Assembly (NCBI GenBank): GCA_027031265.1
Contig: JALVRO010000141.1
Span: 1-39,106, forward strand
From: Bacteroidales bacterium
GTDB lineage: Bacteria > Bacteroidota > Bacteroidia > Bacteroidales > S143-33
Direction: 5' to 3'
DNA: 39,106 nt
Shown here: in pieces, positions 19,195-39,093 of the stretch
How positions within the stretch are numbered: position 1 is the first letter of the stretch
Layout of the letters: the number at the start of each line of letters is the position of its first letter
Position numbers and translations under genes: made by a program
Notes under the pieces: model-generated
What the model was told of the DNA's origin: nothing
Databases searched by the model: none
Seen by the model: the letters and a program-made list of their open reading frames with translations, nothing else

Positions 19195-20718
19195 ATGAGG
19201 AAGATTTTTACAGTATTTTTAGGATTAATGTTTTTTTTGTCTGCATGGACACAGGATGATTCATTGATAACGAGTCAAGTTGTTGAGAATCTTGATGAGT
19301 TGATGGGTTTGTGGTATGTGCGCAACCCACATGATACTTTTGTAAGCAGTACAGGGTTGGATCATAAGCTTGAGACGCCTGATTCTGTTATTGTACAACG
19401 TCTGCATTATATTCCCACAAGTATTCCATTGACATTTAATTATCGTGTTAGACGCTGGATAGATTTTTACCTGAAACAAGAGCAAGCTTTACCTACCTTT
19501 CTGGGGCTGGGAAGAGTGTATTTCCCTATCTTTGAGCAGATTCTGGATAAATATGGTTTGCCATTAGAGCTTAAATATTTACCTGTGATAGAGTCGGCTT
19601 TTAATATCAGGGCACGCTCGCGTGCAGGAGCTGTGGGACTATGGCAGATTATGTATGGCACAGGAAAATTATATGGTCTTGAGATAAATAGCCTGGTGGA
19701 TGAACGTATGGATCCCTACAAAGCCACAGATGCCGCTGCTAGAATTTTGAAAGATCTGTATGATAAGTACCATAATTGGTATTTGGCCCTGGCTGCATAT
19801 AATGCAGGGCCAGGAAATGTGAATAAGGCTATCAGGCGTTCGGGAGGTAAGACTGATTTCTGGCAGATTTATCCATACCTGCCAAGAGAAACAAGGGGAT
19901 ATGTGCCAGGATTTATTGCTGTTGTTTATTTGATGAATTACGCCACAGAACATAATTATTACCCACGCAATCCAGGTTTTGCCCTTGCGGCGGACACAGT
20001 AATGGTTAATGATACTCTCCACCTGAAGCAGGTAGCACAGGTCCTTAACATACCTTTGCAACAGTTGCGTGATCTTAATCCACAGTATAAACTCGATATC
20101 ATACCAGGCCATATTAAGCCTTATCCATTGCGTTTGCCAGTTAATAAGGTGTTGAATTTTATAACATTAGAAGATTCTATTTATCATTACAAGGATTCTG
20201 TATTTTTCCCCAAAAATGTGATTGTCAGTGTTAATACTCGTTCGTATTATGCTAGAGGGTATTCCAGACCCACACCATGTTATACCAATACCAGGGGTAA
20301 GGTGAAACTTTATTACAGAGTCAAACCTGGCGACACTTTTGGTTTTATAGCAGATTGGTATGACGTTACTATTCGTGAGCTCAAGTGCTGGAATAATCGC
20401 TGGTCTAACCGTCTGCGTGTTGGTGAAAGACTCGTGGTCTATGTGCCTGCCAGCAAGGTAAGCCTGTATAAAAAGATTAATAGCCTTAGCTTTGAGCAAA
20501 AACAGAGGCTCACAGGTACACCAATAGTTAATACCAGTAAGCCCAAAGATCCGAATTATGTATATTATCAGATACGCAGGGGTGAGAGTCTTTATACCAT
20601 AGCACGCCGTTTTCCTGATATTTCCTACAGTGACCTGGTCAAGATAAACGGTTTCACAGATTACGAGGTAAGGCACTTAAAGCCAGGCCAGTGGATAAAA
20701 ATAAAAAAGAAAGATTAA
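19195..20718 (+). CDS. mltD: Membrane-bound lytic murein transglycosylase D-like (SLT + LysM domains)
   Basis: LPVIESAF catalytic Glu, AGAVGLWQIM, LAAYNAGPGNV, LPRETRGYVP; LysM repeats YRVKPGDT and YQIRRGESLYTIA. Confidence 0.92.
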   Translation: MRKIFTVFLGLMFFLSAWTQDDSLITSQVVENLDELMGLWYVRNPHDTFVSSTGLDHKLETPDSVIVQRLHYIPTSIPLTFNYRVRRWIDFYLKQEQALPTFLGLGRVYFPIFEQILDKYGLPLELKYLPVIESAFNIRARSRAGAVGLWQIMYGTGKLYGLEINSLVDERMDPYKATDAAARILKDLYDKYHNWYLALAAYNAGPGNVNKAIRRSGGKTDFWQIYPYLPRETRGYVPGFIAVVYLMNYATEHNYYPRNPGFALAADTVMVNDTLHLKQVAQVLNIPLQQLRDLNPQYKLDIIPGHIKPYPLRLPVNKVLNFITLEDSIYHYKDSVFFPKNVIVSVNTRSYYARGYSRPTPCYTNTRGKVKLYYRVKPGDTFGFIADWYDVTIRELKCWNNRWSNRLRVGERLVVYVPASKVSLYKKINSLSFEQKQRLTGTPIVNTSKPKDPNYVYYQIRRGESLYTIARRFPDISYSDLVKINGFTDYEVRHLKPGQWIKIKKKD

Positions 20719-23901: not shown

Positions 23902-24981
23902 ATGGAACGCTACCTTTCCCTGGGCATAATGTCCGGCACATCTTTAGACGGTCTGGATCTGGCTTTGTGCGAGTTTCGGTATGAGAGAAGCATGAAGCAC
24001 ACAAGCGATGATAAAACTGAGGGATCATGGTCTTTTCAGATTCTCGAGGCCAGGACAGTGCCTTATCCCAGGGAATTAGCTTTGGAGCTACGGAAAGCGC
24101 AGAAGGGAAGTGCTTTGAATCTTATTGCTTTGCATAAACGCTATGGCAAGTTTATAGCGGAGAAAGTAAATGAATTTCTGGTGGGCAAGAGCAGACCAAT
24201 GCTCATAGCCTCGCATGGACACACGGTTTTTCACTACCCAGATGCAGGGATAAATTTTCAGATTGGTGATGGTGCTATTATTGTCTCGCTGACAGGCCTG
24301 CCTGTGGTGTGCGATTTCCGTTCGCAGGATATTGCCCTGGGTGGCCAGGGAGCACCTCTGGTGCCAGCCGGGGATTATTTTTTATTCCCCGGCTACAATA
24401 TCCTGCTTAACCTGGGCGGATTTTCCAATGTGACGATTCGTAATCGGATGATAGCCTTTGATATTTCGCCAGTTAATTATGCCTTGAATTATTTTGCCCG
24501 TCAGTTTGGATTGGAATTTGACCGAGATGGACAGCTAGGACGAAAAGGCAAGGTATACCCCCCTTTGCTTGACCAGCTTAACAATCTGGATTATTACTCC
24601 ATGGAGCCACCTAAATCTTTGTCAGACCACTGGTTTTATAACGAATTTTTGCAAGTTCTGGAAGCACATAAAATAGACATTATGGACAAGTTCGCCACTG
24701 TGTACCATCACATTGCGTGGCAGATTGCCAGTGTGGTTAACCAGGAAAAAGGACGTGTGCTGGTCACAGGTGGTGGCGCAAAGAATAAGTATTTGATAGA
24801 GTTGATCAGGTCACAGGTTAAAAATGAAGTCATTATTCCAGACCCACTTCTGGTAGATTTTAAGGAGGCTATGGTCTTTGCATTCCTTGGACTATTGCGC
24901 TGGCTGGGGAAGGAGAATGTTTTTTCCTCTTTTACAGGTGCTGGGCGTAATAGCATCAGTGGTGCTGTTTATTTGCCATAA
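23902..24981 (+). CDS. anmK: Anhydro-N-acetylmuramic acid kinase
   Basis: GIMSGTSLDGLD, ASHGHTVFH, DFRSQDIALGGQGAPLVP, LNLGGFSN, TGGGAKN, KEAMVFAFLG. Confidence 0.95.
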   Translation: MERYLSLGIMSGTSLDGLDLALCEFRYERSMKHTSDDKTEGSWSFQILEARTVPYPRELALELRKAQKGSALNLIALHKRYGKFIAEKVNEFLVGKSRPMLIASHGHTVFHYPDAGINFQIGDGAIIVSLTGLPVVCDFRSQDIALGGQGAPLVPAGDYFLFPGYNILLNLGGFSNVTIRNRMIAFDISPVNYALNYFARQFGLEFDRDGQLGRKGKVYPPLLDQLNNLDYYSMEPPKSLSDHWFYNEFLQVLEAHKIDIMDKFATVYHHIAWQIASVVNQEKGRVLVTGGGAKNKYLIELIRSQVKNEVIIPDPLLVDFKEAMVFAFLGLLRWLGKENVFSSFTGAGRNSISGAVYLP

Positions 24982-35908: not shown

Positions 35909-36670
35909 ATGAATAACAAGCTGAAATATACTGTTTTCCTGCTGATAATCCTTAGTCTTTTTGCCTGCCATAGGGACAAAAAAAACAATGAGCAGGGAAA
36001 GAAAAGTAAGCAATTTGTTGAACAAGATTATTTCTTTCCTCCTGAGTTGTATTATTACCAGGCTCGAAGCGATTATATGATAGACAAACTCTTCCCTATT
36101 GGCTGGTCTGAGGATGGTAATTTTGCTTTTATTGTCGAACCAGCTGTTGAAGGGCTGGATGTATATGTCTTTGAGATGTATGTCATTAACCTTATTAGTG
36201 GGGATACGCTCTGGCACTGGACCACACCTCCAGACCAGGACCTGGTTAGAGAAGAAGTGTGGAAGAATAATTACAATCAGTTCAAGACTATCTTGAATAA
36301 GTACCATGTTATTCAGGATAAAAAGCCACAATTGCTTGCTCCGTATTTTACTTATCAGGGGGATGATTTTAGCATAGAGATGCAGACAGACTTTCGCAAG
36401 GAGCCAGGTTATGGTTTTGAACCTGTCGGTCATACACGTATTATTATCCGTTCTCCACAAAGAGGTGTGAAGGTGGCTTATGATAAAGATTTGCCAAAGA
36501 ATTCTATTATCATTTCGCAGACAATAGCTGGTGTGCTGATCAGCCCTCTCAATGACAAGATAGCTATTATCTTACAGCAGGAAAGACCAGGCTATGAAGG
36601 GCCTCCAAATGTTATTACTTTCCAGATCATTGGTACCAGCCTGGGAGCTGGATGGAGCTATGAAAATTAA
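35909..36670 (+). CDS. Hypothetical lipoprotein
   Basis: LFA|C lipobox; PIGWSEDGNFAF motif; starts 1 nt after the ridA stop. Confidence 0.8.
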   Translation: MNNKLKYTVFLLIILSLFACHRDKKNNEQGKKSKQFVEQDYFFPPELYYYQARSDYMIDKLFPIGWSEDGNFAFIVEPAVEGLDVYVFEMYVINLISGDTLWHWTTPPDQDLVREEVWKNNYNQFKTILNKYHVIQDKKPQLLAPYFTYQGDDFSIEMQTDFRKEPGYGFEPVGHTRIIIRSPQRGVKVAYDKDLPKNSIIISQTIAGVLISPLNDKIAIILQQERPGYEGPPNVITFQIIGTSLGAGWSYEN

Positions 36671-36672
36671 TT

Positions 36673-36707
36673 AAAAGGCTGCCTATTTTACACAGGCAGC
36701 CTTTTTT
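36673..36707 (+). terminator. Intrinsic terminator closing the lspA-to-lipoprotein run
   Basis: AAAAGGCTGCCT...AGGCAGCCTTTTTT. Confidence 0.88.
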
Positions 36708-36776
36708 GTCAATTTAGTGTTTTGCTTTTTTGAAAAAAATATTATTTTTAACAAAAAAATAATAATCTTTTTTATT

Positions 36777-37592
36777 ATGGAAATCAAAGATCACATTCTT
36801 TACGGTAAGAATGTCAAAAAAATGATTCCTTCCCCAAATCATGGAGGCGAGTTTAAAGAAGGAGACCTTGACACAATCGTTATTCATTATACTGGAGGGC
36901 CTTATAAGCAGTCTATTAATACCCTGACAAATCCCCGTGTGCGTGCTTCGGCCCATGTCGTTGTCGACCGTGATGGTAGTGTTACTCAGCTGGTACCATT
37001 CAATCTAATAGCTTGGCACGCTGGTAAGAGTTATTACCGTGGACGTACTGGGTTTAATAATTTTTCTATAGGCATTGAGATTGTCAATTCCGGGCCATTA
37101 ACAAAGAGTGGTAATGTCTTCCGTTCATGGTATGGTGAGGCTTTTAGTCCTACAGAAGTAATTGAGGCTGTTCATCGTAATGAGACGCGCCCTCGTTATT
37201 GGCATATATATACTCCAGAACAGATTGAGACAGTTACAGAGCTATCCCAGCTACTTATTGAAACTTATGGACTTAAGTATATATTGGGGCATGAGGAGAT
37301 TGCTCCGGGACGTAAGCTAGATCCAGGACCAGCATTTCCTTTAGACAAACTCCGTGACCGTCTGCTTGGCACACATCGTGATGAAACTGGAGCGCCAGAA
37401 CCACCACAGGCAGGTCGTATAATTGCCAAGAGCCTTAACATTCGTCTTAAGCCTAGTACCACAGCTCCTCTGGTAGCACGTCCTCTGACAAAGGGAACGA
37501 AGGTTATTATCAAGGATGAGCATAACGGCTGGTACAAAGTAGCGGTCACTGTCGAAGGTTGGGTCTTTGGTAAATATGTTGAACCAGAATAA
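36777..37592 (+). CDS. N-acetylmuramoyl-L-alanine amidase (Amidase_2/AmpD-like) with C-terminal SH3b-like domain, no signal peptide
   Basis: IVIHYT, SAHVVV, AWHAGKS, SIGIEIVN, GHEEIAPGRKLDPGP; C-terminal LNIRLKPST...KGTKVIIKDEHNGWYKV...EGWVFGKYV. ATG 36777 is preferred to the low-complexity GTG extension from 36717. Confidence 0.92.
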   Translation: MEIKDHILYGKNVKKMIPSPNHGGEFKEGDLDTIVIHYTGGPYKQSINTLTNPRVRASAHVVVDRDGSVTQLVPFNLIAWHAGKSYYRGRTGFNNFSIGIEIVNSGPLTKSGNVFRSWYGEAFSPTEVIEAVHRNETRPRYWHIYTPEQIETVTELSQLLIETYGLKYILGHEEIAPGRKLDPGPAFPLDKLRDRLLGTHRDETGAPEPPQAGRIIAKSLNIRLKPSTTAPLVARPLTKGTKVIIKDEHNGWYKVAVTVEGWVFGKYVEPE

Positions 37593-37606
37593 AAAAGTAC
37601 CTGGCC

Positions 37607-38038
37607 ATGAAAAAAATATATTTCATATTGGGCCTACTGGCTTTGCTGCTAATAGTTGGTTATTTATATAATAAAGGTGTGATAAAGACAGACTGGCAAT
37701 GGCTAACCATAATTCTAGCTGCACTGGCTGGTCCTTATAAACTTATTGAAGATTCTCTTAAAGAAAAAGGTAAACGACATGGCAGGGGCAAAGGTAAGGC
37801 CCAGCAGATCTTGATGCGACAGCTGCAGATAGAAAAAGAAGAAGCAGTGCTGCGCCAGCAGTATGAAGCATTGCTCAAACAGAAAGAGTTAGAGATAGAG
37901 GAGCTCAGAGCTAAACTGCAAAAACTACAGGATCAGCTCGAGCAATTGCAACTAGAACGTAAGCAGATAGAATCCGAGGTACAGTCAATGACTCTGGAAG
38001 AAAAATCCCAGGAGTTTTCTGATTATTTTGGCACATAA
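37607..38038 (+). CDS. Hypothetical membrane protein: N-terminal hydrophobic hairpin plus long coiled coil (i-spanin-like topology)
   Basis: TM at about residues 4-21, second hydrophobic stretch WQWLTIILAALAGPY, basic linker, then about 60 aa of Q/E/L/K heptads. Confidence 0.8.
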   Translation: MKKIYFILGLLALLLIVGYLYNKGVIKTDWQWLTIILAALAGPYKLIEDSLKEKGKRHGRGKGKAQQILMRQLQIEKEEAVLRQQYEALLKQKELEIEELRAKLQKLQDQLEQLQLERKQIESEVQSMTLEEKSQEFSDYFGT

Positions 38039-38049
38039 AGAATCTATTT

Positions 38050-38484
38050 ATGAAACGAGCAGTTTTTATAGTATTTGTGCTAATTTTGTCTGCTGCCTTA
38101 TGGGCACAGCATTATCCAATATCTGTGGTACCAGGTCAGAAATATACAATTGCACCCAAAGAAGACACACTGTGGGTAATAACAGATAACCAACTGGAGA
38201 GGGCCTTGATAGCTGCTAAACAGCTAGAGAATGCAGATAAACAAATTGTTAATTATCAGAAGCAAATAGAAAATCTCAATGAGCAGTTGCAGCAGACAGA
38301 TACTTTGCTCCTTGAGACCCAGAAGAATATGGAATATTATCGTCGGCAGTGGAAAGATTGTAGTGATAACATAAAGGTTCTGGTCAAAGAGAATGACCGG
38401 GTGAATGCAAAATTTAAAATGGCAAAGATAATCGGAGTAATTTCTACTGTTGCTGCATTTGCACTTGGTGCATATCTTTTTTAG
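38050..38484 (+). CDS. Hypothetical protein: signal peptide, coiled coil and C-terminal TM anchor
   Basis: MKRAVFIVFVLILSAALWA|Q; heptad region; C-terminal IIGVISTVAAFALGAYLF. Confidence 0.82.
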   Translation: MKRAVFIVFVLILSAALWAQHYPISVVPGQKYTIAPKEDTLWVITDNQLERALIAAKQLENADKQIVNYQKQIENLNEQLQQTDTLLLETQKNMEYYRRQWKDCSDNIKVLVKENDRVNAKFKMAKIIGVISTVAAFALGAYLF

Positions 38485-38529
38485 TCACATTTGAATAAAA
38501 AACAAACGAAACTAAAAATATAACATAAT

Positions 38530-39030
38530 ATGACAACATTACTTCAAATCTTCCCTGATACAGTGCAGTATTATGTAGGACATCCCAAAGAGTTCTTCTG
38601 GTTGGTTTATTTCCCAATCATGGCTTGGATGATTTTGGTACTCGTATTTTTGATTGCACTGTTCATCCGTTACACTTTTGGTAATTGGAGTGTGGAGAAT
38701 CCTAATCCTTATGAAAAAGAAACATTCGGTATGCCACGTGGTACTTTCCGTGGTATATTGACCCTCACATTGTTGTGGGTTGTGGTTGTCCTGGAGCTTG
38801 TTAATGTGCGAGTGGAAGGCTTCGAAGCTCAAATGCATGAACTCATGGTAGCTTTCCAGATGATGATAGGATTTTATTTCGGTGCGAAAGTTATGCATCA
38901 TATCACTGCAGTTGAGAAGACAAAGGCTTTGTATGAATATGGTCCTAGCTATCCAGGAACAGAAAGCTCTGGGTTAACTCCTGCTTCACCTGAGGCCGAG
39001 CAGGAAGAAGAACAGGGAGCCGTTGGTTAA
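38530..39030 (+). CDS. Hypothetical 3-TM membrane protein, holin-like
   Basis: Three hydrophobic segments, GMPRGTFRGIL and MIGFYFGAK motifs, charged/acidic C-tail. The ORF is secure; the holin function is inference. Confidence 0.75.
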   Translation: MTTLLQIFPDTVQYYVGHPKEFFWLVYFPIMAWMILVLVFLIALFIRYTFGNWSVENPNPYEKETFGMPRGTFRGILTLTLLWVVVVLELVNVRVEGFEAQMHELMVAFQMMIGFYFGAKVMHHITAVEKTKALYEYGPSYPGTESSGLTPASPEAEQEEEQGAVG

Positions 39031-39056
39031 ACTTGTGTTTTTTAGTTTGACTAAGG

Positions 39057-39093
39057 GAAGGGAGCACCACAGTGGTGCTCCCTTTCGTGTTTT
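39057..39093 (+). terminator. Terminator hairpin closing the amidase cassette
   Basis: AAGGGAGCACCAC-a-GTGGTGCTCCCTT perfect inverted repeat followed by TCGTGTTTTG. Confidence 0.82.

Follow-up and report, generated by a model that had tools for sequence, protein, structure and literature searches.

Class I phage holins, of which lambda S is an example, have three transmembrane segments (TMs). Among cellular holin/endolysin systems, the type 10 secretion systems (T10SS) comprise Serratia ChiW/ChiX with the spanins ChiY/ChiZ as well as systems of Salmonella and Yersinia; so far they have been found mainly in Proteobacteria and Firmicutes and have been traced to prophages. In a review, the known T10SS are described as prophage-derived and linked to cargo such as chitinases or toxins (PMC9527704). 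Here we compare with such systems a four-gene unit at the right end of contig JALVRO010000141.1 of a Bacteroidales bacterium. This contig was analysed at its entire length of 39,106 bp and is called the window in the following. The genes are all on the + strand and encode a zinc amidase, two coiled-coil membrane proteins, cc1 and cc2, and a protein with three TMs, tm3. The unit is cellular and not a piece of a prophage. Its tm3 protein is an unannotated membrane module, newly described here, that occurs in several phyla and is coupled by fusion or operon to wall hydrolases without a signal peptide. In related lineages at least five kinds of wall hydrolase are fused to the C-termini of the tm3 module or of the cc1 protein. 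The findings point to an undescribed holin-like, non-phage route for releasing wall hydrolases.

The gene tm3 (38530-39030, + strand) encodes 166 aa and is the last of the unit. An AF2 model with a mean predicted local distance difference test (pLDDT) score of 73.8 consists of three long helices at residues 19-49, 70-94 and 98-137. An alignment of 29 sequences out of 150 matches contains 32 invariant columns. TM1 and TM2 are joined by a conserved polar loop, and TM2 has a conserved acidic residue and Asn. Likewise conserved are TM3, which bears FYFG (GFYFG in the window protein), two His after it and the acidic tail with G-A-x-G at its end. Over these 29 short forms the number of lysines and arginines (K+R) averages 0.45 at the N-end and 1.17 in loop 2, against 2.72 for loop 1 and 3.86 for the first 25 tail residues. 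For 23 long forms the averages are 1.09 in loop 2, against 9.9 for loop 1 and 5.2 for the part after TM3. The majority of the long forms begin with a signal-peptide-like segment, several of these ending in A-Q, or with an extra TM ahead of TM1, and because of this the start of TM1 is placed outside. The predicted topology of tm3 is accordingly N-out and C-in, with the TM1-TM2 loop in the cytoplasm.

As judged from its sequence, tm3 shows the traits by which holins are recognised as a functional class: it is a small protein with three predicted TMs and a charged tail, and it is encoded beside a gene for a signal-less hydrolase (66 of 80 loci). It matches no holin family in Pfam, NCBIfam or PHROG. 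A Foldseek search of the model against BFVD and the PDB returned nothing at E<=0.001, and the wide mode of VIA-align gave generic helical hairpins with a best Z of 7.3, which is not evidence of a new fold. The label PF06681 (DUF1182) found on a few tm3 homologues was not reproduced for the window protein and is regarded as spurious. An Atlas search yielded clusters without names at a best score of 0.87 and serves as a lead only.

The significance of tm3 becomes apparent in its wider family. A search of the tm3 profile against 1.84 billion representative proteins gave 209 matches at E<=1e-3. Besides forms of ~160 aa, the matches comprise many proteins 250-740 aa in length that share the tm3 core, that is, the end of loop 1, TM2 and TM3. 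Among 25 long forms scanned against Pfam, five carry C-terminal wall hydrolases, namely Muramidase PF11860 (four times), Amidase_3 (once), DUF5675 (twice) and Peptidase_M15_3 (once). Most of the other scanned long forms end in an unannotated domain that corresponds to phrog_30036 (3e-29), a family of unknown function. The model of this domain (pLDDT 89; L110:7730-8473 and relatives) shows a GH46-chitosanase-like fold of the lysozyme superfamily, matched by Foldseek to GH46 chitosanase with a probability of 1.00, an E-value of 4e-4 and a TM-score of ~0.5. Weaker matches were a Vibrio cholerae type VI secretion (T6SS) effector-immunity complex, pesticin and P1 Lyz. Based on the model, phrog_30036 is likely a chitosanase-fold hydrolase.

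To place these proteins in their loci, an alignment of 23 long tm3 forms was used, a single-sequence locus search with protein P0184 having returned nothing; 80 of 250 confirmed loci were kept. According to the record titles, from which the phylum names were taken, they belong to Ignavibacteria, Cytophagales (Bacteroidota), Fibrobacteres, Gemmatimonadetes, Calditrichia and KSB1, and the cultured Cytophagales among the carriers include Cyclobacterium, Lunatimonas, Lunatibacter, Persicobacter, Marinoscillum and Agaribacillus. The operon of Ignavibacteria consists of a cc1-like gene, a cc2-like gene and a tm3::hydrolase fusion. The order in Cytophagales and others starts with an optional Amidase_2-SH3 gene, followed by a cc1-like gene (often ending in DUF5675), tm3 (often fused to Muramidase, Amidase_3 or DUF5675), a DUF4230 lipoprotein and a large DUF4230 membrane protein. 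In systems of the Cytophagales type, tm3 is always followed by the DUF4230 lipoprotein (~200 aa) and the large DUF4230 protein (426-807 aa), which has a TM at its N-terminus (L146, L153, L168, L177, L187 and many of L122-L187); this provides a first genomic link of DUF4230 to wall-hydrolase systems.

One or more hydrolase domains are fused in frame to tm3 in 49 of the 80 wider loci, while a separate upstream Amidase_2-SH3 gene without fusion is present in 19, and no locus has both (0/80). A PG_binding_1+CHAP gene lies downstream in two loci and a separate muramidase gene upstream in one. The remaining nine include three loci at contig edges (L133, L139, L183), two with frame breaks (L117, L132), one with only a cc1::DUF5675 fusion (L148), and L120, L121 and L138. 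Counted more loosely, 75 of the 80 contain at least one hydrolase-like match. As for the frame breaks, the hydrolase-coding stretch after tm3 contains in-frame stops in one locus (L117:7658-8365) and lies in another frame in the other (L132:7755-8708); these may be decaying copies or assembly errors.

In the window the hydrolase is encoded separately. The amidase gene (36777-37592, + strand, 271 aa) starts at an ATG common to all orthologues and codes for an Amidase_2 domain (PF01510; 4.7e-30, 105 bits against a cut-off of 26) followed by a C-terminal SH3_3 domain (1.1e-9). The zinc-binding and catalytic residues H37, E101, H172, K180 and D182 are invariant in an alignment of 37 orthologues chosen from 72 that were extracted, and none of the 72 has an N-terminal hydrophobic segment, signal peptide or TM. 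Judged by its sequence, the protein is a zinc amidase with intact active-site residues and a wall-binding-type domain, without an export signal. The nearest solved structures are AmpDh2 (4bj4, 1.4e-21), AmiD (2bh7) and AmpD (1j3g). The best NCBIfam match is AmpD (NF008758), in two stretches; its score of 104.8 bits is lower than the equivalog cut-off of 143. Full-length relatives are endolysins of alphaproteobacterial phages with 33-38% identity (54 matching records, of which 29 align over at least 80% of the query length), and next to the phage endolysin homologues of DSS3P8 and vB_PeaS-P1 no cc1-, cc2- or tm3-like architecture was found. The only Amidase_2 genes of the source MAG (metagenome-assembled genome) are the one in the window and a copy on a second contig, C245. 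A role of the unit as a replacement for AmiC-type enzymes was considered and rejected, as Amidase_3 is present in the source MAG and in 37 of 41 genomes of the order.

Between amidase and tm3 lie the genes for two further membrane proteins. The first, cc1 (37607-38038, + strand, 143 aa), has TM1 at residues 5-22 and a second hydrophobic segment at 31-46 with an AALAGPY motif, in which P43 is invariant, and continues into a coiled coil that ends in a conserved F/Y-G. Mean K+R counts (N-end 1.72, stretch separating the two TMs 0.69, part following TM2 3.59) lead us to predict a TM hairpin with both ends inside and a cytoplasmic coiled coil. The cc1 forms of Cytophagales and Ignavibacteria have two clear TMs. 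Homology to the Ignavibacteria protein is well supported (hhalign 97.9%, E 4e-13), while the match to the Cytophagales counterpart, which ends in DUF5675, is weak and limited to the TM hairpin (hhalign 60.8%). The second, cc2 (38050-38484, + strand, 144 aa), begins with a signal peptide whose last residues are A-Q. This leads into a short N-terminal domain, which is conserved, and a coiled coil that has a single conserved Cys; a TM forms the extreme C-terminus. In 32 orthologues Q20 is invariant and the signal region contains no Cys, which indicates a type-I signal peptide without a lipobox. The body of cc2 is predicted to be periplasmic, and cc2 is the only component with a clear periplasmic body. 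Its architecture of N- plus C-terminal hydrophobic segments recurs at related loci, and it is homologous to the Ignavibacteria cc2 (hhalign 96.2%, E 2.5e-9); kinship with DUF4230 was rejected (hhalign 0.4%). In four Calditrichia-type loci (L080, L092, L097, L099) cc1 and cc2 are separated by an additional gene, which codes for 112-125 aa with a single TM at the N-terminus; Bacteroidales loci lack it.

Searches of cc1, cc2 and tm3 against Pfam, NCBIfam, PHROG and PADLOC gave no match above noise. The sole spanin-type match was to PHROG Rz-like proteins at E=0.002, a coiled-coil-level similarity. An i-spanin has a single N-terminal TM and a periplasmic coiled coil, while cc1 has a second conserved hydrophobic segment and a K+R pattern that suggests N-in and C-in; the lipobox Cys of o- and u-spanins is missing from cc2. 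The original prediction, made from the window alone, had described the unit as an amidase, two coiled-coil membrane proteins and a holin-like protein, and had drawn the parallel to the phage set of endolysin, holin and spanins. Its zinc amidase with an SH3-like domain and no signal peptide is borne out by the Pfam matches, the invariant residues and the 72 orthologues. The spanin label is not supported, in view of the predicted cytoplasmic coiled coil of cc1, the missing lipobox of cc2 and the lone Rz-like match. For the holin-like protein the outcome is divided: a class-I-holin-like predicted topology, the charged tail and the linkage to hydrolases speak for it, and homology to any holin family was not found.

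The four genes mostly stay together. A pattern scan with one genome per species confirmed 96 related loci, of which 80 were kept, carried by Bacteroidales MAGs and by Calditrichia/Caldithrix MAGs. By tblastn the order amidase-cc1-cc2-tm3 is retained in 66 of these 80. Of the other 14, four are cut by contig ends and most of the rest have open reading frames (ORFs) of fitting size and TM pattern; three (L085, L086, L093) lack an amidase upstream. At L086, a Calditrichia locus, the divergent upstream gene (L086:3344-5362, - strand) encodes a SpoIID-domain protein with a C-terminal sorting domain of the type IX secretion system (T9SS), possibly a further wall enzyme tied to the system. The source MAG itself (2.93 Mb, 96.5% complete, 4.1% contamination) contains the second four-gene copy on contig C245 (locus L002 1-2287, corresponding to 36737-39026 of the window), with 88% nucleotide and 90-98% protein identity. 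This copy may stem from a co-binned sister strain or species or be a true paralogue. Relative to it, the ratios of nonsynonymous to synonymous substitution rates (dN/dS) are 0.016 for amidase, 0.029 for cc1, 0.086 for cc2 and 0.055 for tm3, indicating strong purifying selection. Across comparisons the amidase value is 0.016-0.022; RidA gives 0.046-0.065 against same-genus genomes. Within the genus the amidase is 93-94% identical, compared with 59-68% for LptD.

Two same-genus genomes show the gene order LptD-like, RidA, hyp253, amidase, cc1, cc2, tm3, and the neighbourhood of LptD and RidA is stable within the family. At the level of the order tm3 is present in 12 of 41 genomes, with 5/5 in the own family and 6/35 other families. 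In a phylum sample of 300 genomes that are at least 90% complete, one other genome matched, weakly.

The evidence that the unit is not part of a prophage comes from several sides. Pfam scans of 181 flanking ORFs, 58 from eight loci and the C245 copy and 123 from 25 of the 80 loci, detected no phage hallmark (capsid, portal, terminase, tail or integrase). One IS1595 transposase (L019) and one HNH/NUMOD4 gene (L024) occur in these flanks. Flanks vary between families and include Mfd, L19, MBOAT, enoyl-CoA hydratase, SRP54, PheS, ClpP and trigger factor. The C245 copy is followed by a TonB-dependent receptor gene and no phage genes, and in one same-genus genome with scanned flanks a TonB receptor and the S12/S7/EF-G ribosomal operon lie downstream of the unit. 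In 50,697 phage records tblastn found no match to tm3, and pattern scans of IMG/VR with short and long forms confirmed no relative. Among the four proteins only the amidase has phage relatives, at the identity of 33-38% given above, and cc1 and cc2 have weak coiled-coil matches only. The PADLOC-DB 2.0 defence models gave no match except at coiled-coil level (E 2e-4 to 7e-3). A link to contractile particles was also pursued and rejected: the sheath family PF04984 occurs in 0/6 own-family genomes and 5/41 overall.

Composition and layout agree with a resident locus. The GC content of the unit is 0.405, as compared to 0.389 +/- 0.026 in 2.4-kb windows of the contig, and 33 of 58 other windows equal or exceed it in tetranucleotide distance, so that it appears host-like. 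The genes are spaced by 14, 11 and 45 nt. A hairpin that is terminator-like on both strands (36673-36705; 14 pairs, 6 of them GC, loop 5, T runs on both sides) separates the unit from the upstream gene hyp253, and an intrinsic-terminator-like hairpin (39056-39086, + strand; 14 pairs, 8 GC, loop 3, T-rich tail), followed by GTGTTTTGTA, closes it. The hairpin scan found six terminator-like sites in the region versus 3.1 +/- 2.1 in shuffles. The contig ends 13 nt past the unit, and sequence to its right is not readable on this contig. The other 25 large ORFs of the window that were scanned are housekeeping genes, among them IleRS, ParAB, S1, LspA, RmlCD, LptD-like, RidA, AnmK, an SLT-LysM transglycosylase and an M23 peptidase, with no phage or mobile gene.

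What the original prediction had said about the locus proved right in all details that were checked, including the four co-oriented genes with their gaps, the strong hairpins around them, the host-like composition and the housekeeping surroundings free of integrase and virion genes. Its proposed check of whether the genes stay together outside prophages in other genomes is answered positively by the order kept in 66 of 80 loci and the 181 flanking ORFs free of phage hallmarks. The idea of a domesticated phage module was not supported, given that tm3 was found neither in the phage records nor in IMG/VR and that the amidase alone has phage relatives. The likeness to type 10 secretion of the chiWXYZ kind was not supported either, with no linked cargo gene and with flanks that differ between families, and where a prophage further to the right had been left open, the C245 copy adjoins a TonB receptor gene instead.

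Directly upstream, hyp253 (35909-36670, + strand) forms a separate transcription unit and encodes a lipoprotein whose family is not recognised. Its lipobox Cys is invariant in 25 aligned orthologues, and of 62 loci with sufficient upstream DNA, 47 have hyp253 ahead of the unit in the same orientation; it was not found in Calditrichia loci. Given this conserved neighbourhood, it is possible that hyp253 is an accessory part of the system. It has no match in Pfam, NCBIfam, PHROG or PADLOC; a relation to DUF4230 was rejected (hhalign 17%), and DUF2259 (Atlas score 0.90) is a lead only. In one large genome an IS1595-family transposase (L019:6351-7247, - strand) lies between the hyp253-like lipoprotein gene and the amidase gene, which shows that the two can be separated without loss of the four-gene unit. 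Elsewhere on the contig, outside the unit, genes of wall turnover and recycling encode AnmK (23902-24981), the SLT-LysM lytic transglycosylase (19195-20718) and the M23 peptidase (2484-3440).

How might these proteins work together? We see about an even chance that the unit is a holin-like gate that belongs to the cell and through which wall hydrolases lacking a signal peptide cross the inner membrane. The amidase would be kept in the cytoplasm and reach the wall through this dedicated gate. With tm3 N-out/C-in and cc1 N-in/C-in, as we infer, fused or co-encoded hydrolases would at first be located at the cytoplasmic face of the membrane, out of reach of any wall substrate. There tm3, probably with cc1, would hold or bind the hydrolase at its C-end. 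On a trigger, tm3 (with cc1) would open, or its C-terminal end would flip across the membrane and take along the enzyme bound or fused to it. The outer part of the device would be cc2, held by its C-terminal TM and reaching into the periplasm with its coiled coil, a periplasmic role that DUF4230 proteins may take in other lineages. Such an event could lyse the whole cell or a subpopulation of cells, or it could open the wall locally without lysis. As fusion and separate amidase are mutually exclusive, the C-terminal motifs of the window-type tm3 and cc1 may dock the amidase, possibly via its SH3 domain. Bulk wall damage accounts better than bond-specific morphogenesis for the free exchange of catalytic types and for cocktails of two to three enzymes per system. 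A precedent is given in section 10 of the review cited above, which reports TpeE-holin::endolysin fusions in six C. sporogenes genomes (PMC9527704). The model described in that part of the review has cargo on the holin C-terminus flipped across the membrane, one enzyme per holin (PMC9527704).

A number of observations weigh against such a gate. No homology to a known holin or spanin family emerged from Pfam, NCBIfam, PHROG, phage records or fold searches. Phage holins are usually poorly conserved, and tm3, with its invariant polar loop and acidic TM2 residue, is far better conserved than they usually are; instead of forming holes, it could act as a specific transporter, sensor or regulator. 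The topology of tm3 and cc1 was derived from sequence rules only, and no trigger or regulator is visible for the system. That the amidase is the sole Amidase_2 in a genome bearing AnmK would suit a cytoplasmic recycling role. The distribution, finally, is patchy (12/41 in the order and one weak match in 300 phylum genomes), which leaves the selective value of a self-lysis device unexplained. A possible although doubtful variant is that tm3 and cc1 form a new Sec/Tat-independent translocator, unrelated to phage holins, that delivers folded hydrolases to the periplasm of living cells for regulated, non-lytic remodelling or release, with cc2 or DUF4230 proteins as the periplasmic part.

Other explanations abandon the gate altogether. 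The hydrolases might be ordinary periplasmic wall enzymes anchored in the membrane, with tm3 and cc1 as anchors or regulators in growth, division or remodelling, a role comparable to FtsEX-EnvC; this would imply that the topology is reversed or that TM3 does not span the membrane. The strong constraint on the amidase (93-94% identity within the genus versus 59-68% for LptD, dN/dS 0.016-0.022), the stable synteny beside LptD and RidA within the family and the clearly periplasmic cc2 would all suit such enzymes, and the nearest solved relatives, AmpDh2 and AmiD, are periplasmic. We nevertheless hold this to be unlikely: 0/72 amidase orthologues have a signal peptide or TM, and the positive-inside counts and the signal-peptide-like starts of long forms put the C-end inside. 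Further, the catalytic type is swapped freely between amidase, muramidase, M15, DUF5675, CHAP and chitosanase fold, which misfits bond-specific morphogenesis, and Amidase_3 is available anyway in the source MAG and 37 of 41 relatives, while the system was not found in most families sampled. Rather improbable in our estimation is a device for abortive infection or programmed death, in which the same gate and hydrolase are kept to kill the cell early upon phage attack or stress. Its housekeeping neighbours rather than defence islands, the lack of a sensor domain, the stable synteny within the family and PADLOC matches that are only coiled-coil noise speak against it; the patchy occurrence across families, the swappable hydrolase modules and the self-directed enzymes without export signal are what one would expect of it.

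The enzyme could also act where it is made. As a cytoplasmic recycling amidase of the AmpD type it would process imported anhydro-muropeptides, and the membrane proteins would dock it at a site of uptake or sensing. The absent signal peptide, the best NCBIfam match to AmpD and the status as sole Amidase_2 in a genome encoding AnmK agree with this, as does AnmK in 9 of 12 tm3-positive genomes. On the other hand, the AmpD score of 104.8 bits stays below 143, SH3_3 is present, and the full-length relatives are phage endolysins. In homologous systems the domains are of the muramidase, Amidase_3, CHAP and chitosanase-fold types, for which no cytoplasmic substrate is known. Nor does the occurrence of AnmK follow that of the system: nine genomes have AnmK without any Amidase_2, and three tm3-positive genomes (91-100% complete) have no AnmK match. 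We therefore rate recycling as distinctly improbable. Lowest of all we place a leftover lysis cassette of a prophage or a phage-like particle (tailocin or injection system) beyond the contig end, the chance of which appears very remote. It draws on the full-length similarity of the amidase to phage endolysins and on a contig that stops 13 nt after the unit, and is countered by the copy on C245 continuing into a TonB receptor gene and by the same-genus unit lying between RidA/hyp253 and the TonB receptor plus S12/S7/EF-G operon, as well as by 0/181 flanking ORFs with phage hallmarks, tm3 not found in phage collections and no sheath gene in six own-family genomes.

The literature searched, supplements not included, holds no description of this gene set, and the papers listed as mentioning DUF5675 and DUF4230 appear unrelated from their titles and the openings of their abstracts. 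If the gate model is true, these bacteria would have a home-grown wall-hydrolase route for autolysis, for the release of contents or vesicles, or for local opening of the wall. The many natural fusions would then allow C-terminal flipping, as proposed for holin transport, to be tested directly, and a role would be gained for tm3, cc1, cc2, the DUF4230 proteins next to them and phrog_30036, the latter as a hydrolase with a chitosanase fold. The model is testable in harmless cultured carriers of the wider family such as Cyclobacterium, Persicobacter, Marinoscillum and Agaribacillus.

Compared with known systems, the amidase shares catalytic fold, zinc and catalytic residues with the Amidase_2 enzymes AmpD, AmiD and AmpDh2. 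It differs from them in the added SH3_3 domain, an insertion at residues ~106-134, a score below the AmpD equivalog cut-off and its partnership with membrane proteins in an operon. Like phage holin-endolysin pairs, the unit combines a small 3-TM protein (predicted N-out, C-in, charged tail) with a signal-less hydrolase. In contrast to these pairs, no sequence or fold match of tm3 to holin families and no phage copy was found, its loop and TM residues are strongly conserved, and the genes are carried on the chromosome, evolve under purifying selection and are inherited vertically and stably within a family. Similar to T10SS, it joins a holin-like protein, a wall hydrolase and other envelope proteins into a non-phage set of a Gram-negative cell; unlike them, the window-type unit has no linked cargo, no phage relatives of its membrane genes were found, and its accessory proteins differ from spanins in their predicted features. 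Closest in arrangement are the TpeE-family fusions of C. sporogenes, in which a hydrolase likewise sits at the C-terminus of a membrane protein, implying cargo attached there and one enzyme per membrane protein. According to the same part of the review, those fusions occur in six genomes of a Gram-positive and involve a holin family of the single-TM type (PMC9527704), whereas tm3 is an unrelated 3-TM module of diderms from several phyla, with at least five fused catalytic types and with cc1 and cc2 or DUF4230 proteins as partners.

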